From the NCBI GenBank assembly GCA_049512295.1, contig JBEKXG010000014.1, positions 1-36,387 on the forward strand: a DNA stretch of 36,387 bases. Direction: 5' to 3'. Positions 1 through 9,186 of the stretch are shown here, piece after piece. Below the pieces are notes generated by a model. That model did not search any database. It saw only the letters and a list, made by a program, of their open reading frames with translations, and had not been told where the DNA came from. A program made the position numbers and the translations under genes. Numbering within the stretch: position 1 is the stretch's first letter; each line of letters opens with the position of its first letter. This DNA is from Syntrophobacteraceae bacterium (GTDB taxonomy: Bacteria > Desulfobacterota > Syntrophobacteria > Syntrophobacterales > Syntrophobacteraceae).

Positions 1-34
1 GCTCGATGATCGAAGTGCCAAGTACCTTGTCCAT
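1..34 (-). CDS. 5' end of an unidentified CDS running off the left edge (MDKVLGTSIIE...)
   Basis: ATG at 34-32 on the minus strand is preceded by GAGGAGG with an 8-nt spacer. Only 11 codons lie inside the window, so no product call is possible. Confidence 0.25.
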   Translation of the reverse strand, partial: MDKVLGTSIIE

Positions 35-75
35 GTCGGTGACCTCCTCGGGATAGAATTCACCAAGGTACTCTC

Positions 76-699
76 TCACACTTCGGCCTCAATTTCCAGC
101 ACTATTACGTGCGATTGCCCTGGCGCTCGCCCTGGGATACCTTGCTTTTCGCTGCGTGCAACCTTTTCAAAGACCGCACGTATGGCCGCATCCTGATAGT
201 AACGGCGGCTCGCTTCGCCACCCGAGTAACGTACAAGAAGCGACCGTGCAACAGTGTCTTCCAAGCTAAAGCCCATGTGCTGTTCGTACCGGGCGCGAAG
301 CTCAGCCGGGGAAGGGAACTCGGACATTGAATGCGGCTTGCTTGTGACCCCGGTGGTCTTGTCGTACTCGACAAAGAGATGGCCGTTGCAGGAATAACAA
401 AAGAGGACGTTCAGCCGTTTGCACGCACCATACACTTTGGCCTGTTCGAGGCCATGGGCAGGATGAAGATGCTCAGCTTTTGCCTCAATCAGGGCAACGG
501 CAACCGGCTGGGTATCCTGGTTGACTTTTACCCGCAAGGTATAATCGACTCGCCCCTTGGCGTTTTTGCGCGGTTTGCCGTTTATGATCTCAATGGCCCC
601 GGCGGTTTCTTCGCGCCGGATAAGGTCTTCAGTCCAGCCACAAGTGTGTATTGCCGGATCGATGAGCTTGGCGCGGGTATCAGCTTCACCTAGTCCCAT
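76..699 (-). pseudogene. hsdR: Type I restriction enzyme R subunit (HsdR), N-terminal nuclease-domain fragment only
   Basis: MGLGEADTRAKLIDPAIHTCGW...VDYTL...ALIEAKAE...RRYYQDAAIRAV is the typical HsdR N-terminal region. The ORF stops about 25 aa later, and no helicase motif I (xTGxGKT) appears in any frame below position 150. Intact HsdR is several-fold longer. The track ORF is 76..726; the MGLGE start at 699 is preferred. Confidence 0.75.
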
Positions 700-1050
700 T
701 ACTGAGAGCCTCTGGACACGAATCAAGACATGAGGAATACACCTAAGAAATCCAGATTGGATGCAGAATCATATTACAGCCATTGGCTATTTGTGCAAGA
801 ATTTCTTCGTGCTCACCGTTGGCAGGGTCTGACACACTACTCACTCGATGTGGAGCTCGTCTCGCCCCTTTTTTGAGTTGCAAAAACCAGTACCGTACAT
901 GGCCGTGTCGTACATGGGCGTTGCCACTCTGTGATTCTTGTGATACCGTTCACGGGACCTCATAAAAGCGCTCACGTGGACCTCGCTCCTACCGATTATT
1001 ATGTTGATGTGAGTCGCTCACCCATGCATTGCTCGGGACCAGGAATTTTG

Positions 1051-1755
1051 ATGAGCACTCTTGATTTAATTCGGTTCATTACTCGGTATGCCACAGAATC
1101 TGGGATTACACTCACCACGGTGAGATTGGTGAAGTTCGTCTATCTCGCGGACCTTTATTTTGCAAGGCAACGCGACGGTCACACCCTTACCGGGTATCCT
1201 TGGGCTTTTGTGTATTACGGTCCGTACTGCTCTGAGATCATGGAGGACTTAGATAAAGCTGCTGGTGGGGGACTCATCCTACGTGATTCAAGAGAGAGCA
1301 AATTCAGTGACAGCGACTTCCACCTTTTTTCATGCCGTGATCCGGAAGCGGACAAGCTCGAAGACCTTTTCCCAATTTGGGTTATCTCGCCTCTGAAGAG
1401 GGCCATCAAAAAGTTCAGCGAAGATACAGAGGCTCTTCTTGATTACGTTTATTTCGAAACCGAACCGATGGAGGGTGTCAAAAAAGGCGACCTGCTGGAT
1501 TTCGGGAAAGCAAGGCCGTCCGTGCGTTCTAAACCACTGCAGTTCAAAAAGTTGTCCCAGCAAAAAATTGAGGCTGGGAAAATTGCCATTGCTAATCTGA
1601 AAGCCAAGGCAAAGAGTAGCAAAACGAATTTACGAAATGACTTCGACGAAGGCAGGCAGTTTTTTGATGAGGTTTATTTCGAATCTTTGGAAAATATGGA
1701 CGATGAAGACCTAAAAGCAGGTCTGACTGGCAAAGCCCGGATTTCACCTGAATGA
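1051..1755 (+). CDS. Panacea/SocA (DUF4065)-like antitoxin-domain protein with a Lys-rich then acidic C-terminal tail
   Basis: The start MSTLDL at 1051 has AGGA 6 nt upstream; the track ORF begins at 931. The core VRLVKFVYLADLYFARQRDGHTLTGYPWAFVYYGPYCSEIMEDLD fits the Panacea pattern (KLxKLxYxA...G.P...Y...YGP). The stop overlaps the next start (ATGA at 1752-1755). Confidence 0.55.
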   Translation: MSTLDLIRFITRYATESGITLTTVRLVKFVYLADLYFARQRDGHTLTGYPWAFVYYGPYCSEIMEDLDKAAGGGLILRDSRESKFSDSDFHLFSCRDPEADKLEDLFPIWVISPLKRAIKKFSEDTEALLDYVYFETEPMEGVKKGDLLDFGKARPSVRSKPLQFKKLSQQKIEAGKIAIANLKAKAKSSKTNLRNDFDEGRQFFDEVYFESLENMDDEDLKAGLTGKARISPE

Positions 1756-2477
1756 GTTTATTGCAGTACATCAAACCGGAAGATTTTTATGTTCCTGTGA
1801 AACCCAGTTCCTACGGTACTGGGCAGTTTTGCCGAATCATCGTGCCGATTATAGAAAAGATTCCCTCCATCTTAGACATCCAGCGGGACAGCCCTACTGA
1901 ACACAGTTTGACTGCGTTCAAGGTGAGAAAAGCAGGCCAGCACACCGACTTTAGGCGAGTGCTGCCCCTGAAATATCTCAATCTGCGCTCAAACGAGGAG
2001 CTTTTAATTCAACGTTCAAAGTACCGTCCAGGCGTTATCATGAATCCTAGGCTGGATTTTGATCCTGACCTGTTCAAACTTTTGAGAAATAGATCAAAAA
2101 CCCACTTACTCGAAGACAGCCTTTTCGTAGCACCCTGTTATAGTGTCCAAGCCGATGATTTCGATACGGGCGTGCCTCTTGAGATGAGCGAAAGAGTCAA
2201 GTGCCTCTTATACAGCCAATTCTTCTACTGTGCTGCGAATTACACATTCCGTCAAACCGAAGGTATTTTAAGATTCGACAGGATACAAGTAGTAGTCGGT
2301 CGGCACCCAGCCGCGATTCAGCCGCTCCCGTATGCATTATCTGAAGAAGCTTTCTCAATCTTCAGGGCCATGTTTCTTTTCTGTATCACAGGAGAACAGG
2401 ATGAGGATCTAAAGATTCTCAGAGAACTGTTAAAAGATTCATATCTCTCTGCTTTGGCTGCTCATGCCCACCCCTAA
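1752..2477 (+). CDS. Hypothetical 241-aa protein, candidate toxin/effector partner of the Panacea-like protein
   Basis: It has a 4-nt ATGA overlap with the upstream gene and an uninterrupted 241-codon frame. No family is recognised. There is only a faint MazF/PemK-like motif order: LPLKYLNL..EE..KYRPGVIM, then LFVAPCYS, then ILRFDRIQVV. Confidence 0.6.
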   Translation: MSLLQYIKPEDFYVPVKPSSYGTGQFCRIIVPIIEKIPSILDIQRDSPTEHSLTAFKVRKAGQHTDFRRVLPLKYLNLRSNEELLIQRSKYRPGVIMNPRLDFDPDLFKLLRNRSKTHLLEDSLFVAPCYSVQADDFDTGVPLEMSERVKCLLYSQFFYCAANYTFRQTEGILRFDRIQVVVGRHPAAIQPLPYALSEEAFSIFRAMFLFCITGEQDEDLKILRELLKDSYLSALAAHAHP

Positions 2478-2977
2478 CTCATCTACGATTCTCTTTTGAG
2501 CACAACCGGTAGGCACCAGAGCCGTCATTTTCGAGTAAAATGTCGAAGACGATGTTGGGGGATGGCCGGATGTGAGATCCTCGATCCTGTGCTCGAAAAT
2601 GCCGCGTCACGAGGCGAGATAGAGCGCAATCTTTAGCCTGCCACACAATTGTGGAATGAACGCGAGAAAAACCACTCACAATTTTTGCGGCGTTGGGGGT
2701 GGCTGCATCTTCGAGAGGGGTTCCGGAAAGGGCGGGGGGTGGTCCGAACAGGGGGACCCCTTACCGAAATACGATTGCAGTCTGACGGCAAGGAGCGACC
2801 ACACCAAAAAACAGAAGGGCCATTTCGAGCAGCGGAGAAAACCTCAAATTCCAATCCGTGCACATGAGAGACACTAAAAAAATCGGTCTTTCTGCCTCTC
2901 TGTTGGGGATACTGTTGGGGCAATGTTTCAACCCGAAGAAAATAAAGCAAATCTATCGACTAAGCTCCTGATTAACC

Positions 2978-3053
2978 TGGAGGGCGACGCGGGGATCGAA
3001 CCCGCGACCTTTGGTTCCGGAGACCAACGCTCTATCCCCTGAGCTAGTCGCCC
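2978..3053 (-). tRNA. tRNA-Arg (anticodon CCG), CCA encoded
   Basis: The reverse complement GGGCGAC-TA-GCTC-AGGGGATA-GAGC-G-TTGGT-CTCCGGA-ACCAA-AGGTC-GCGGG-TTCGATC-CCCGC-GTCGCCC-T-CCA folds as a canonical 76-nt cloverleaf. The anticodon loop is CU-CCG-GA. Confidence 0.95.
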
Positions 3054-3162
3054 TCTATAAGGCAGGAAAAAATGCGGATGCCGCTGCCGAAAACCCGGCA
3101 GGACCCAAGTCGGTTGCGTATCACAGGCGCCGGCCTTTGTCAATAAAACCGCGCCGCCGGTG

Positions 3163-4147: not shown

Positions 4148-4177
4148 GCGTTTTTTCAGTTCACTCTTCACTGCTCC

Positions 4178-4203
4178 ATTGCATTTGGCCTGTATTTGCA
4201 ATG
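4178..4203. repeat. 26-nt box attgcatttggcctgtatttgcaatg, copy 1 (internal inverted repeat ATTGCA-N14-TGCAAT)
   Basis: An exact 26-nt duplicate lies at 4481-4506 in the same orientation, 303 nt away. Confidence 0.9.
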
Positions 4204-4216
4204 CAACCCGCTCAGC

Positions 4217-4278
4217 CCTCGTCACCCCGGAAGTGTCCAGTCCGGGGCCTCGTCACCCCGGAAGTGTCCAGTCCGGGG
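4217..4278. repeat. 2 x 31-nt tandem repeat, each unit a hairpin CCCCGGA-agtgtccag-TCCGGGG
   Basis: The units at 4217-4247 and 4248-4278 are identical. The stem arms are the same as those of element B at 3273-3289. Confidence 0.9.
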
Positions 4279-4297
4279 CCTCAATCCTCACTGCTCT

Positions 4298-4353
4298 TCC
4301 GCTGTTCACGCTCGCTGTTATCCGCTGTTCACGCTCGCTGTTATCCGCTGTTA
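4298..4353. repeat. 2.4 x 23-nt tandem repeat (tccgctgttcacgctcgctgtta)
   Basis: The copies are 4298-4320, 4321-4343 and a partial one at 4344-4353. Confidence 0.9.
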
Positions 4354-4480
4354 TTGTTGAGAAGGAAATTCGAAACTGTCAATGAAATTAAGTTGTTGCT
4401 GGATTATCCGCCGAATTTGAGCTGTATTTTCAGCGAAAAATTCCACATGTTAATAAAATCAAGCATTTACGCAGGTCCCT

Positions 4481-4506
4481 ATTGCATTTGGCCTGTATTT
4501 GCAATG
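4481..4506. repeat. 26-nt box attgcatttggcctgtatttgcaatg, copy 2
   Basis: Exact duplicate of 4178-4203. Confidence 0.9.
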
Positions 4507-4700
4507 AAGAAGTCCTGTCGATGGGTTTTTCGCAGCATGAACTTTCCCTCTAAGCCCTTTGGCCCTGGCGGGAGCGAACGGCCTCGCGCTCGAGTATTCA
4601 TTTTAACCATTGACCGGCAAAAAGGGGACATTTTCTGTTTACTGTCGGACCCATTCTGATTAAAAGCTTAATCGGGCTAACACTTGACCGGGAATCGACC

Positions 4701-5519
4701 ATGAGTGGCACGAAGATAAAAGCCGATCCGATGAAACAAATTCATGCGGGTGAAAGCGTTCCTTTTCTCACGTTCAGGAACCTGTCCGGCGTTCCGGGGC
4801 TTTTGCACGGGGTTTTCACCAGGCGGGGCGGGGTAAGCCTGCCGCCTTTCGAGAGCCTGAACGCGTCTTGGAGCAATGGCGACTCACCCGGGGCCGTGCA
4901 GGAAAATCTTACCCGCATAAAGAACGCTATCGGACTCGAAAGGCTCGTTTCCGGCCGTCAGTTCCATGGCGACTCGATAAATTTCATCGGCAATGAGTCC
5001 GCCCGGAGCCTGCACGAGCGCCCGCCCCTTTTGATCGCGCCTCCGGCAGACGCGCTTGCGACCGATCTGCCGGGCCTTGGCCTTGTAATAAAGATCGCGG
5101 ATTGCCAGTCCATTTTCCTCGCCGACCCGCAAAGCCGCGTCATTGCCAATATCCACTCCGGGTGGCGCGGAAGCGTCCTCAATATTGCCGCAAAGACGGT
5201 CCAGTACCTCAGGGACCGCTTCGGGCTGAATCCTGCCGCCACGTTTGCCGCCGTTTCCCCGTCCCTTGGCCCATGTTGCGCCGAATTTGCAAACTACCGC
5301 AGGGAGATTCCGCAGAAGTTCTGGTCCTTTCAGGTTCGCCCCGAATACTTCGACTTCTGGGCAATCACGCGGCACCAGTTGACGTCGGCCGGAATCCGCG
5401 GGGAGAACATCGAGTTTGCGGCAAGATGCACCGTGTGCGGGAAGGCGGAATTTTTTTCGTACCGGGGCGAAGGCCCAACCGGGCGCATGGCGGCGGTAAT
5501 CGGGTGGAAAAGCTGTTAA
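4701..5519 (+). CDS. pgeF: Peptidoglycan editing factor PgeF / YfiH (DUF152) family protein
   Basis: LLHGVFTRRGGVS.PPFESLN, RQFHGD, IKIADCQSIFLADP...ANIHSGWRG and CCAEF...FSYRGEG..TGRMAAVIGW match the family motifs, including the His/Cys/His metal-site pattern. Confidence 0.85.
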   Translation: MSGTKIKADPMKQIHAGESVPFLTFRNLSGVPGLLHGVFTRRGGVSLPPFESLNASWSNGDSPGAVQENLTRIKNAIGLERLVSGRQFHGDSINFIGNESARSLHERPPLLIAPPADALATDLPGLGLVIKIADCQSIFLADPQSRVIANIHSGWRGSVLNIAAKTVQYLRDRFGLNPAATFAAVSPSLGPCCAEFANYRREIPQKFWSFQVRPEYFDFWAITRHQLTSAGIRGENIEFAARCTVCGKAEFFSYRGEGPTGRMAAVIGWKSC

Positions 5520-5548
5520 TCCCCCGATCGGGTCGGGGGCAGGCTCTG
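5519..5548. repeat. Hairpin element B, copy 2 (atCCCCCGAtcgggTCGGGGGcaggctctg)
   Basis: Same loop and tail as 3271-3300. The stem carries a paired G/C swap that keeps the 7-bp stem intact. Confidence 0.75.
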
Positions 5549-5600: not shown

Positions 5601-6482
5601 TTGGAGCTAAGTTTGGATAAGATAATCGAAGATGCCCGCATAATTTACCAGGAGAAAATTGCCGGGCAGATATTCCGGCTCCGGCTGCATTCGCCTCAAA
5701 TCGCGGGCGCGGCCCGGTGCGGGCAGTTCGTGATGATTCGCGTGCGTGAGGGGACCGATCCGCTGCTGCGCCGCCCCTTTTCCTTTAGCCGGATATATGC
5801 CGGACAGGGGGATTTCGAAATCCTCTACAAGGTCGTGGGCCGCGGCACGTGGCTCATGTCGCAGCTTGCGCCGGGATCGGCCGCAAGCCTTATCGGCCCT
5901 CTGGGAAACGGATTCGAACTGCCGGTCGACAGGACTGCTCCCTTGGCCTTCATTGCCGGCGGGATCGGGATAGCGCCTCTTCTGGAGCTGATCGCACAGG
6001 TGGTTTCAGACCGCGGGCCGAGGGGCCTCGAAAACCTGCGCCTTTTCTACGGCGCCCGCGCGGTGTCCGAGCTTTTGCCCGAAGACTTTTTTCGGGACCT
6101 GGGCGTTCAGGTCCACTTTGCAACCGACGACGGCAGTTTTGGCTACACGGGGCGCATTACCCGGATGTTCGAAGAATTTACGGCGGCGGGGGACTTCCGG
6201 CCCTTGGAACTCTATTCATGCGGACCGCTCGCCATGCAGTATCACGTGGCGAGGTGGGCGCTCTCAAATGACGCGCTCGCCCGGCTTTCGATGGAATCTC
6301 TCATGGCCTGCGGGATCGGGGCCTGTCTGGGGTGCGCGCTCCCCGCATCGACACCCGGCGACCCCGAATCCGAACGCTTCGTCCACGTGTGCGAAGACGG
6401 CCCGATCTTTTCGGCAGGATCTATCAAATGGAGCAAAATTTTAGCCCAGCAGACGCCTCCCCCGGCCTGGCTGTTCAGCTAG
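5601..6482 (+). CDS. pyrK: Dihydroorotate dehydrogenase (class 1B) electron-transfer subunit
   Basis: It has the FAD/NAD-binding pattern (GQFVMIRV, RRPFS, GGIGIAP) and a C-terminal 2Fe-2S motif (CGIGACLGC...C). The start is uncertain: TTG at 5601, or TTG at 5613 which has GGAG 6 nt upstream. Confidence 0.88.
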   Translation: MELSLDKIIEDARIIYQEKIAGQIFRLRLHSPQIAGAARCGQFVMIRVREGTDPLLRRPFSFSRIYAGQGDFEILYKVVGRGTWLMSQLAPGSAASLIGPLGNGFELPVDRTAPLAFIAGGIGIAPLLELIAQVVSDRGPRGLENLRLFYGARAVSELLPEDFFRDLGVQVHFATDDGSFGYTGRITRMFEEFTAAGDFRPLELYSCGPLAMQYHVARWALSNDALARLSMESLMACGIGACLGCALPASTPGDPESERFVHVCEDGPIFSAGSIKWSKILAQQTPPPAWLFS

Positions 6483-7426
6483 GGCCGCTGCGCCTCAAAA
6501 ATCCCGTTATGAGCGCATCCGGCACCTTCGGCTACGGTGAAGAGTACTCGAGCTTCTTCGACCCGGGACGCCTCGGGGCCGTCGTGGTGAAGGGGATTTC
6601 GCTCAAACCCCGCGCCGGGAACCCCCCTCCCCGCCTGGTCGAAACCCCGGCAGGCATGATAAACGCAATCGGCCTGGAAAATGTCGGGGTCGAAATGTTT
6701 TTGTCCGTCAAGCTCCCCTTTTTGCGCAATCTGGACGTTCCCGTAATCGTAAATATCTTCGGCAGCACGATCGAGGAGTATGCCGAGCTTGCCGCCCGGC
6801 TCGATCGTGTGCCGGGGATAGCCGCCCTGGAGATCAACGTAAGCTGCCCGAACGTAAAAGAAGGCGGGATGGTTTTCGGTACCGATCCGGCGATGACCGC
6901 CAGGGTGGTGGAATCAGTCAGGCGCGCCACGAGTCTTCCGCTAATCACCAAGCTCACGCCGAACGTGACGAGCATCTCGGAAATCGCCAAAGCCGCCGAA
7001 GGGGCCGGAAGCGATATCGTCTCCTGTATAAACACCGTGGCGGCCATGGCCGTAGATATTTTTTCCAGGAGGCCGCGGCTGGCCAATATTTTTGGGGGGC
7101 TTTCCGGACCTGCGGTAAAACCCGTTGCTCTTCGGTGCGTCTATGAGGTCAGCCGGGCGGTCAAATGCCCGGTGATAGGAATCGGCGGGATCACCAACGC
7201 AACGGACGCCCTCGAGTTTTTGCTCATAGGCGCCGGCGCCGTCCAGGTGGGGACCGCCAATTTCATAAACCCCGGCGCCGCGGCCGAGATAATCGATGGG
7301 ATAGAGCGCTTCCTCAGGGTGGAGGGAATTCCCGATATAAAAAGCTATATCGGGAGCCTTGATACAAGCTGCCTTTTCCCTTTTGCCGAGGATTCGTGCG
7401 CCGTAATCGAATCGGAAATCTCTTAA
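6428..7426 (+). CDS. pyrD: Dihydroorotate dehydrogenase catalytic subunit (class 1B)
   Basis: LKNPVMSASGTFGYG, KGIS, NAIGLEN, NVSCPN and GIGGI are typical PyrD motifs. The ATG at 6428 is the only plausible in-frame start before the conserved N-terminus, and it gives a 55-nt overlap with pyrK. Confidence 0.92.
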   Translation: MEQNFSPADASPGLAVQLGPLRLKNPVMSASGTFGYGEEYSSFFDPGRLGAVVVKGISLKPRAGNPPPRLVETPAGMINAIGLENVGVEMFLSVKLPFLRNLDVPVIVNIFGSTIEEYAELAARLDRVPGIAALEINVSCPNVKEGGMVFGTDPAMTARVVESVRRATSLPLITKLTPNVTSISEIAKAAEGAGSDIVSCINTVAAMAVDIFSRRPRLANIFGGLSGPAVKPVALRCVYEVSRAVKCPVIGIGGITNATDALEFLLIGAGAVQVGTANFINPGAAAEIIDGIERFLRVEGIPDIKSYIGSLDTSCLFPFAEDSCAVIESEIS

Positions 7427-7472
7427 TACCAGGTTGCGTGCAAACATCCAAAATCATTCCCCCGCTCATTTC
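7422..7472. repeat. Uninterrupted A+C intergenic repeat filling the convergent pyrD / ROK-kinase gap
   Basis: It matches 3163-3194 plus 3326-3348 with a few substitutions. The pyrD stop codon lies inside it. Confidence 0.75.
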
Positions 7473-8504
7473 TTACCGCTTTGAGAGCGGCTTGGCATAA
7501 GACCTGTTCACCGGTTCACCCACTCGCCTGCCTGCGCCTGCGGCCAGCCGCGCGGCCCCGATGAGGGCTGCATCGTTTCCGAGGCGGCTTTGCGTAACAA
7601 CGGCAAGACCGGGGTCGAGCATCGAGCAATTTTGAGCAAGGGCCTTTTCCAGCGGGCCTATGAAAAGGTCCCAGGCCGTGCTGACCCCTCCTCCGATGAC
7701 CGCGCGCCTTATCCCGAGGGCCGAGAAGATGTTTGCCAGACAAATCCCCAGCGCCCGGCCCATCTTATCGAAAAGGGCCAGCGCCGTGGGATCTCCTCTT
7801 TTCGCGCATGCATAGATCGCCTGTGCGCTTAGTTTCCCCTCTGATTCGAGCGCACGGAGCGGGCTCTCCTCATTCTTTTGCTCATGGACGGCTCTTCTTG
7901 CGCCCGATACGAGCGCACGCGCCGATGCAAACGCCTCCAGGCACCCTTCCGACCCGCAGGGGCAAACCGGCCCTCCAGGCTCCACAATCATGTGGCCGAT
8001 CTCCGCCGAAAACCCGAGGTCGTCTCCTTCCCACAGCTTTCCATTGAGGAAGAGGCAGCCTCCCGTACCCGTGCCAAGCGTGATCCCGACCCAGTTTCGA
8101 ACTCCCCTGGCGGCGCCCGTAAAGCTCTCACCCAGGCCGAAGGCGTTTGCGTCGTTTTCCATACAAACGGGGATTCCCAAATTCCGCCGTATATCATGCC
8201 CCAGTGGGTATCCATCGAGCACCGGAAGGTTCGGAGAAAAAATCACCGAACCGCCGGCCCTGTCGATTTTCCCGGCGACCGCAAGCCCGATGGCCCCGAC
8301 CTCCATCCCCAGCTTCGCTGCTGAACGAACGAGCGCCCGGCACTGGGCGAGCAATTTTTTCGAAATCCTTTCCGCCCCCCGGTCAAGCGGCACCTGCGTT
8401 ATCCGCGACTCGATTATTTCCCCGGAACGATCCACCAGGGCCGCCCTGAGGTTGGTCCCACCTAGGTCGACTCCGATACATGCGCTCTTTTCAATATTTT
8501 TCAT
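7473..8504 (-). CDS. ROK-family sugar kinase (glucokinase-like)
   Basis: The start MKNIEKSACIGVDLGGTN is at 8504; the track ORF extends to 8615. The ROK zinc motif CPCGSEGCLE is present. There is no N-terminal HTH, so this is a kinase rather than a repressor. Confidence 0.85.
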   Translation of the reverse strand: MKNIEKSACIGVDLGGTNLRAALVDRSGEIIESRITQVPLDRGAERISKKLLAQCRALVRSAAKLGMEVGAIGLAVAGKIDRAGGSVIFSPNLPVLDGYPLGHDIRRNLGIPVCMENDANAFGLGESFTGAARGVRNWVGITLGTGTGGCLFLNGKLWEGDDLGFSAEIGHMIVEPGGPVCPCGSEGCLEAFASARALVSGARRAVHEQKNEESPLRALESEGKLSAQAIYACAKRGDPTALALFDKMGRALGICLANIFSALGIRRAVIGGGVSTAWDLFIGPLEKALAQNCSMLDPGLAVVTQSRLGNDAALIGAARLAAGAGRRVGEPVNRSYAKPLSKR

Positions 8505-8556
8505 GATCCCGGTATTTATCGCCGGGCGGGCGGTATGCCAGCCCTCATGCTGTTGA

Positions 8557-9186
8557 TTATTTGAACAGGAATGCTTCCGGCACATAAAAGACGTAGCTGT
8601 GTGCAAGAATGTCAAACTGGGAGTTTGTCTCCTGTTCTATGCCGCTCAGGAGGTCCTTTAGAGACGAAGCGTTGCGGATGGTATCCATGAAGACGCCGGG
8701 ATTATAAAGCTCGGGGTGGAGCGGAAGCAAAAAATCGCGGACGTTGCCTTTCCACGCGACGTTGAGCTTTTCGCGTTCCTCGTTTATGATTTTGAAAAAT
8801 CTTCGCACCAGGTCGGTACGCAAAACAGGGGACGGCGCCTTGGTGGCGCACTCCATGAGTCCGGCGAGCCAATAGACGCGGCGCATGCGTTTTTCATCTT
8901 CCCGAAACCTGAAAAGCCACAGGAACGTGTAGTGATAGCCGCCGTCCAGTCTAAGGTGGTTAGGAACCAGCGTTATGGAGGGCCTGTCCGGCGTTGCTTT
9001 GCGGCGCTGGGCTTCCAGCTTTGCGGATTCTTCCCGCATGCACAAAATGGCGCTTCCGGAAAGCCATTCGCCTTTGCGAAACTCGAGCGGAGACGAGGCG
9101 ATCAGGTTGGTTCCAGGTTTAAGCCTGGTGGAAAGATCGATGATATCCGCCATTGTCTTCCCGAACGGGAGCAGCCTAGTTTCCAT
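8557..9186 (-). CDS. Hypothetical protein
   Basis: Long open frame with protein-like composition and no recognised motif. The start is uncertain (9267, 9186 or 9153). The plus-strand ORF 8716..9360 over the same DNA is R/G/P-rich and looks spurious. Confidence 0.5.
   Translation of the reverse strand: METRLLPFGKTMADIIDLSTRLKPGTNLIASSPLEFRKGEWLSGSAILCMREESAKLEAQRRKATPDRPSITLVPNHLRLDGGYHYTFLWLFRFREDEKRMRRVYWLAGLMECATKAPSPVLRTDLVRRFFKIINEEREKLNVAWKGNVRDFLLPLHPELYNPGVFMDTIRNASSLKDLLSGIEQETNSQFDILAHSYVFYVPEAFLFK

Follow-up and report, generated by a model that had tools for sequence, protein, structure and literature searches.

A Panacea-domain gene and its overlapping partner in a Syntrophobacteraceae bacterium: a probable toxin-antitoxin pair with a MazF-fold toxin candidate

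What kind of protein is encoded directly behind a Panacea-domain gene in a Syntrophobacteraceae bacterium, and do the two genes form a toxin-antitoxin module? The question is raised by a stretch of 36,387 nucleotides from this organism (NCBI GenBank assembly GCA_049512295.1, contig JBEKXG010000014.1, positions 1 to 36,387 of the forward strand; the whole stretch is called the window below), in which two plus-strand genes, gene 1 and gene 2, overlap by four bases. An earlier note, made from the sequence without database searches, had taken gene 1 for an antitoxin with the Panacea (DUF4065) domain and had left gene 2 without a family. PanA antitoxins, which carry this domain, are known to pair with dozens of toxin types, PemK-domain toxins included (Kurata et al., 2022, PNAS, PMC8832971). 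The analysis described here indicates that the pair likely represents a PanA/PanT module, a form of type II toxin-antitoxin system, in which gene 2 would be a toxin with the MazF fold and gene 1 its cognate antitoxin.

The Panacea-domain protein and its conserved tail

Both genes begin with ATG, and their positions and the ATGA shared by the two reading frames are as the earlier note had given them (Table 1); from the sequence, the overlap is read as translational coupling of gene 1 and gene 2. The start codon of gene 1 at 1051 is the one used by its homologues in the gene-1 family alignment (A3), and an AGGA lies 6 nt 5′ of it. The strings on which the Panacea assignment had been based, VRLVKFVYLADLYF and GHTLTGYPWAFVYYGPYCSEIMEDL, are present in gene 1. 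Indeed, the protein scores above the gathering cut-off of PF13274, SocA_Panacea (27.1 bits against 25.7; E 8.6e-6; residues 26-140), and this narrow margin is backed by the family, since 37 of 37 aligned homologues match the same model with a best E of 2.2e-8. By profile match, gene 1 is a Panacea/SocA-domain protein. Its family comprises 482 homologues, and the best 120 of the 482 cover 92-100% of the 234 residues.

Table 1. Positions, in the window, of the gene pair, its parts and its flanking features. pLDDT, predicted local distance difference test.
Feature	Positions	Strand	Basis
Gene 1, candidate PanA-type antitoxin, 234 aa	1051-1755	+	PF13274 match
Panacea globular core, residues 1-150	1051-1500	+	pLDDT >90; A3 motifs
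Lys-rich long helix, residues 170-204	1558-1662	+	AlphaFold2 pLDDT ~90; basic character kept in A3
C-terminal tail, acidic and aromatic, residues 205-234, proposed to neutralise the toxin	1663-1752	+	A3 conservation
ATGA start/stop overlap (gene 2 ATG 1752-1754, gene 1 TGA 1753-1755)	1752-1755	+	Direct reading
Gene 2, MazF/PemK-fold toxin candidate, 241 aa	1752-2477	+	AlphaFold2/Foldseek and hhalign
K90-Y91-R92-P93, aligned to MazF G-H-R29-P catalytic-arginine motif	2019-2030	+	hhalign A2, A5
P128-C-Y130-S131, aligned to MazF P50-C-T52-T53	2133-2144	+	hhalign A2
R174-F-D176, aligned to MazF L-A-D-Q strand	2271-2279	+	hhalign A2, A5
Truncated type I R-subunit (HsdR), N-terminal fragment	76-726	-	NCBIfam and PADLOC
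tRNA-Arg(CCG)	2978-3053	-	ARAGORN; Rfam tRNA 64.7 bits

The AlphaFold2 model of gene 1 (mean pLDDT 87) consists of a globular core, a long basic helix and an acidic tail, matching the order of a Lys-rich and then an acidic stretch that had been seen in the sequence. The core carries three motifs that are invariant in A3, VK..YL.D..A, W.F..GP and T..LLD..Y..TEPM, and the tail follows a family motif of its own, DExYxxALExMDGEDLxxGLxGxAxI, in which D206 is at least 90% conserved and G227 is invariant. In the model, the tail forms a short helix at 207-217, followed by a block from residue 221 with pLDDT values of 48-49, and values under 50 are given for residues 228-232. The tail is therefore in part conserved in the family though predicted to be disordered when modelled alone, a combination that is typically shown by segments folding upon contact with a partner.

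By analogy with MazE, whose acidic C-terminus occupies the groove of MazF, the tail, an acidic and aromatic segment that may resemble it, would bind the toxin and block its RNA-binding groove, and the Panacea core would act as a scaffold or a sensor. The proposed mechanism fits what has been described for PanA proteins, as multidomain members often neutralise their toxins via appended linear elements and the Panacea core may be a sensor (PMC10440598).

Two further observations concern gene 1. A 23-nt direct repeat (87% identical) lies within it at 1436-1458 and 1661-1683, and its copies encode LLDYVYFE (core residues 129-136) and FFDEVYFE (tail residues 204-211), so that the tail motif is similar to a conserved helix of the core (D-x-V-Y-F-E-T/S...M). 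Chance may account for part of this similarity, because it is weaker in the homologues. A fold search of the gene 1 model against the PDB returned weak winged-helix-like matches (PadR, RTP) and no Panacea structure; the best match was a chain of a DarTG complex with E 0.02, and nothing is concluded from this search.

A MazF-like barrel in the partner protein

Gene 2 belongs to a sizeable family without annotation. The protein matches no model in Pfam, NCBIfam or PADLOC. A word-indexed search gave 48 relatives and an exhaustive profile search gave 541 metagenomic clusters at 50% identity, most matches being 225-260 aa long; all named members seen are labelled "hypothetical protein". A tblastn search of plasmid and phage collections gave no match, and a fold search of the gene 2 model against viral predicted structures gave only noise.

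The fold, by comparison, points to one known toxin class. The AlphaFold2 model, built from 46 sequences, has a pLDDT of 84.3 and a predicted template modelling (TM) score of 0.75. When it was compared with the PDB by Foldseek, ranks 1-30 were occupied by MazF only, from M. tuberculosis, Bacillus and S. aureus, with probabilities of 0.66-1.00, target-normalised TM scores of 0.46-0.62 and E values of 5e-3 to 0.25. The order of secondary-structure elements corresponds to one barrel with additions, namely a hairpin and loop at ~34-87, a helix at 143-150 and a C-terminal helix at 218-239. The N-terminus is a short segment leading into the first barrel strand at 24-33, after which the beta-hairpin and loop are inserted; accordingly, the 70-aa N-terminal extension that the earlier note had supposed is replaced in the model by an insertion behind the first strand. 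An arrangement of two tandem MazF domains was also considered and rejected, as the element order fits a single barrel with insertions. Gene 2 would thus be a single MazF/PemK domain (the SH3-like barrel of CcdB and MazF) enlarged to ~240 aa by the hairpin and loop after the first strand, the mid-domain helix and the additional C-terminal helix.

Profile comparison leads to the same class. A MazF/PemK/ChpB profile was made from 13 annotated toxins of E. coli K-12 and plasmids and compared by hhalign with three alignments of gene-2 relatives: A2, with 99 diverse members; A5, a separate distant subfamily; and A1, a shallow set of close relatives taken up below. A2 matched the toxin profile with a probability of 93% (E 3.3e-7) and A5 with 84% (E 8e-6), and the control comparison between A2 and the unrelated A3 gave 0.2% (E 0.26). 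The A2 alignment spans residues 89-213 of gene 2 and 25-110 of MazF, and A5 is aligned in the same register. The relationship of gene 2 to MazF/PemK is thus one of fold and profile. A weak MazF/PemK-like order of motifs had been the only hint available from the sequence. The strings that formed it (LPLKYLNL..EE..KYRPGVIM, LFVAPCYS and ILRFDRIQVV) are all found, and hhalign pairs them with MazF as had been proposed, KYRPGVIM with GHRPAVVLS, APCYS with VPCTT, and RFDRIQ with LADQ.

The aligned motifs are also those that the family keeps. In A2, K90 is conserved in 96 of 99 sequences, R92 in 98 and P93 in 80; R92 occupies the position of the catalytic arginine of E. coli MazF (R29). P128 is present in all 99, and R174 and D176 in 95 each. 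Five of the seven most conserved positions (K90, R92, P128, R174 and D176) are aligned to MazF, the remaining two being G24 and P72 (96/99 each). Most likely, gene 2 would act as a sequence-specific endoribonuclease that halts translation, a role proposed because of the analogy with MazF and with two MazF-like toxins that have been tested together with their PanA partners.

Linkage, decay and neighbourhood of the pair

If the two proteins are toxin and antitoxin, their genes should be found together. Every locus collected was scanned with hidden Markov models of both families; the genome scan used the A1 profile and is biased towards close relatives. In 22 of 22 intact gene-2 copies with upstream DNA, an open reading frame (ORF) of the gene-1 family lies directly upstream on the same strand. 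The same arrangement occurs in four loci of the distant subfamily, from Acidobacteria, Polyangia, Tepidisphaeraceae (Planctomycetota) and an unassigned contig, where the upstream proteins match the gene-1 profile with E values of 1e-20 to 1e-38 and keep the acidic/aromatic tail. The linkage to an antitoxin-like gene, as presumed for the window copy, is therefore seen in all 26 intact copies with upstream DNA, and no intact gene 2 without gene 1 was encountered among the loci examined. Where the junctions could be called, the genes overlap by 1-11 bp or lie a few bases apart. Because both families are large (482 and 541) and adjacent in every locus examined, the association of gene 1 and gene 2 is more than chance juxtaposition.

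Broken copies of the pair are informative as well. Gene 2 is cut to its first ~118 codons in one locus (L008/L040) and frameshifted in two others (L009/L041 and L044), and gene 1 is intact in all three. In L009/L041, from an uncultured Syntrophobacter, the frameshift splits gene 2 (4810-5543) into ORFs of 140 and 104 aa, and the same split is found in a second, independent assembly (L010). A toxin and its antidote would be expected to decay in just this asymmetric manner, with gene 2 broken and gene 1 intact and never the reverse. In a further locus (L042), gene 1 is absent and gene 2 has been decapitated by an insertion sequence (IS). A 410-aa open frame there was considered as a natural fusion of PanA and toxin and was rejected, since the frame is what an IS/transposase ORF has left of gene 2.

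The L009/L041 locus is syntenic with the window on the side of tRNA-Arg, Cu-oxidase_4 and pyrK-pyrD, with ~67% nucleotide identity. Because of this synteny, the module probably occupied this site already when the two lineages separated, the toxin having decayed in one of them. In L009/L041, a type I restriction-modification system is present in complete form upstream of the pair. In another locus (L035), a Panacea paralogue without the C-terminal tail (661-1329) is located ~2 kb upstream of the full pair and is followed by a YhcG/DUF1016 nuclease of the PDDEXK type (1544-2761), not by a gene-2 homologue; this may represent a different PanA partnership.

In the window, the pair is flanked by an HsdR fragment and a tRNA-Arg gene, as had been noted. 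The former encodes the initial ~195 residues of an EcoAI-type R subunit: it matches NCBIfam NF046051 with E 9e-34, at model positions 2-178 of 768 only, and the PADLOC model REase_I with E 2e-21. Its stop codon is at 76-78, 75 bp from the contig end; a continuation was looked for in the other frames and not found, and no HsdM or HsdS was found near it with the probes used. The tRNA gene marks the boundary to a chromosome of higher guanine-plus-cytosine (GC) content, as GC is 44-49% across ~750-2750 against 58-62% in the housekeeping genes further right (Cu-oxidase_4, pyrK/pyrD-like, ROK, MutL, AFOR). A search of 1-3100 for an integration scar, in the form of a directly repeated tRNA-Arg 3′ end, found none.

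Several small sequence features accompany the locus. Three TACCGTACATGG-like 12-mers are located at 891-902, 906-917 and 944-955, ~100-160 nt 5′ of the gene 1 start, and could be an operator for autoregulation; against this idea, the gene 1 antitoxin has no recognised DNA-binding domain. Across 700-3100, a single sigma-70-like site is found, and it belongs to the minus strand. Farther right, the intergenic region 4160-4510 contains perfect tandem duplications of 31 nt (two copies, 4217-4278) and 23 nt (two copies, 4298-4343), as well as a 26-nt sequence that recurs exactly, at 4178 and 4481.

The wider neighbourhoods are diverse. Restriction-modification or other defence-type genes occur within 4-5 kb of the pair in ~14 of 26 distinct loci, a raw count without a background rate, and in this respect the defence-island context suggested for the window recurs elsewhere. 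They comprise type I restriction-modification genes (window, L008, L009, L011 and L045), ResIII-type enzymes (L031, L033 and L039), a type IIG enzyme (L007), a large N6/N4 methylase (L028), a TIR protein (L026), a reverse transcriptase (L003), a YhcG nuclease (L035) and DUF499 (L044). In about half of the loci only housekeeping genes are neighbours. One locus, from a Syntrophobacteraceae metagenome-assembled genome (L003), is a dense conflict-system neighbourhood: directly downstream of the pair (5774-8688) are a 655-aa protein with a reverse-transcriptase domain and a 316-aa partner on the opposite strand, and upstream of it is an RHS/AHH toxin with Imm11 immunity. In two loci of distant relatives (L047, 1-4723, and L049, 1-4735), genes for a phage-type integrase and a primase immediately precede the pair, the primases being of the Prim-Pol/DUF3987 and the Toprim plus AAA_25 types; with such neighbours, the pair is cargo of small integrative elements. 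Varied neighbourhoods, integrase elements and a GC content low relative to the host are signs of mobility, and the module, found mostly in Desulfobacterota and other uncultured anaerobes, would move as a unit and settle preferentially beside restriction-modification and other defence genes.

Such neighbours raise the possibility that the module serves mainly in abortive infection or phage defence, the Panacea domain sensing a phage cue or the loss of restriction-modification and setting free the MazF-like effector. This proposal, which extends the toxin-antitoxin reading and does not replace it, is a tentative one. It draws on the type I, IIG or III restriction-modification, TIR, reverse transcriptase, YhcG and DUF499 genes counted above, on the HsdR fragment that adjoins the window copy, and on the preference of Ernits et al. 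for a sensing role of Panacea when an appended element neutralises (PMC10440598). However, neither protein matches any PADLOC model, the phage and plasmid collections yielded nothing for gene 2, the count of defence-type neighbours lacks a background rate and housekeeping genes alone surround about half of the copies; moreover, toxin-antitoxin modules generally cluster in such islands without proven defence activity.

Weighing the assignment and its place among known systems

Several observations weigh against the assignment of gene 2 as a MazF-like toxin neutralised by gene 1. No Foldseek E value for gene 2 reaches 1e-3, and the query-normalised TM score is ~0.3, which is low because half of the chain lies outside the MazF core. 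The shallow alignment A1 is matched to the MazF/PemK/ChpB profile with a probability of only 13% (E 0.0021). Searches of PDB sequences by phmmer and with two family profiles gave no match, and a Pfam run on 46 gene-2 relatives found PemK_toxin (PF02452) in a single one with E 0.094. The position aligned to the catalytic Thr52 of MazF is Tyr or Phe in 98 of 99 sequences of A2, and the next one is Ser or Gly in 91 (Ser 52, Gly 39), a shift of the register by one residue being possible. The case for neutralisation by the tail, finally, is made from conservation, predicted disorder and analogy.

With an aromatic residue aligned to Thr52, the active site appears to depart in part from the canonical one, so that chemistry or target could differ; from the sequence, the active site of gene 2 may be modified. 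A protein of the CcdB/MazF fold that is not an RNase, acting on another target (e.g., DNA gyrase, like CcdB) or with remodelled chemistry, would also account for the size of twice that of MazF and for R45 and H51 in the inserted hairpin, which are conserved in 88 of 99 sequences each and have no counterpart in MazF. We regard it as distinctly unlikely, since the thirty best Foldseek matches are all MazF endoribonucleases and CcdB is absent from the top 50, the arginine equivalent to the catalytic one and the preceding K90 are nearly invariant, and the two PanA-linked MazF-like toxins tested inhibit translation (PMC8832971). That gene 2 is instead without toxicity and has an accessory or regulatory role, being co-transcribed with the Panacea gene, e.g., for restriction-modification control, is highly improbable: although it has no family assignment at the sequence level, the two-gene unit is strictly kept across unrelated neighbourhoods, including loci without restriction-modification genes, its architecture is antitoxin-first and overlapping, gene 2 alone is found inactivated beside an intact gene 1, and gene 2 is related to a toxin fold.

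The likely PanA/PanT module has close parallels among published systems. Validated PanT toxins of Pseudomonas moraviensis and Bifidobacterium ruminantium have no match in CDD and are predicted by HHpred to be RNases of the EndoA/PemK/MazF family; both inhibit protein synthesis and are neutralised by PanA (PMC8832971). Gene 2 is like them in that its relatedness to MazF becomes visible only by profile and structure methods, and the gene pair is like published PanA/PanT pairs in having a Panacea antitoxin without an additional N-terminal domain directly upstream of the toxin gene and overlapping with it, the published overlaps being -1 or -4 (PMC8832971). The MazF-like PanT proteins form clusters T5 and T6 of Dataset S1 in the same study (PMC8832971), from which the gene 2 family is set apart here by description and not by sequence. 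Unlike the published pairs, gene 2 has hairpin and helix insertions and a C-terminal helix, and gene 1 has a family-specific basic helix and acidic tail.

Compared with MazEF, PemIK and ChpBIK, gene 2 shares the barrel fold by Foldseek, the order and register of motifs by hhalign and the arginine at the R29 position. On the other hand, it misses PF02452, its catalytic threonine appears to be replaced and it is twice as long (~240 aa; E. coli MazF has 111 aa and other aligned MazF/PemK proteins ~106-121 aa), and its antitoxin is a Panacea protein and not of the AbrB/MazE DNA-binding or the PemI type. Because size, insertions, the partner and, in the alignment, the catalytic-threonine position differ from classical MazF, gene 2 is not filed as a member of PF02452 but as a MazF-fold PanT. 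With SocAB, the type VI system of Caulobacter and founding member of Panacea/DUF4065, the pair has the SocA-like Panacea domain in common, although gene 1 reaches 11.2 bits against the NCBIfam SocA equivalog, whose cut-off is 190. SocA serves as an adaptor that links the toxin SocB to ClpXP; SocB binds DnaN and has no relationship to MazF. Nothing suggests such an adaptor mechanism for gene 1.

How new is the pair? The earlier note had expected novelty in the partner protein. This was right insofar as gene 2 belongs to a new, unannotated family, and overstated insofar as PanA antitoxins with MazF-fold toxins had already been published and validated (PMC8832971); what gene 2 adds to a known toxin class is a new family and not a new fold. 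The family itself appears to be uncatalogued. The only cultured organism found with the pair is Desulfocurvus vexinensis (L004), in which the partner protein, WP_156939671.1, is named "hypothetical protein". The sole Panacea gene listed for this species in Dataset S1 is marked "no_PanT: no cluster found" (PMC8832971); its accession differs from that of the L004 gene and the identity of the two is not confirmed, but if they are the same gene, the toxin family was not catalogued. Within the library searched, no paper was found to cite the accessions, and no Desulfocurvus entry was found in the NetFlax supplementary text.

The pair reveals no new principle. What the analysis offers is a fold and a probable function for an unannotated family of ~540 clusters at 50% identity, and the published catalogue of Panacea genes, in which the only entry for D. 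vexinensis has no toxin partner, apparently gains a missing piece. With its strongly conserved tail, which is always accompanied by the toxin, the gene 1 family may be a useful test case for PanA proteins that neutralise via appended linear elements, the Panacea core doing something else. Because restriction-modification neighbours are frequent, the module could reasonably be included in defence screens of anaerobes that have received little study. A bolder version seems fairly unlikely: a remodelled gene 2 would act on a non-classical target, conceivable because of the apparently replaced threonine and the new conserved Arg and His in the inserted hairpin, and the Panacea tail would release it upon a phage signal or the loss of restriction-modification. 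If true, the pair would be an abortive-infection module linked to restriction and widespread among anaerobic Desulfobacterota.

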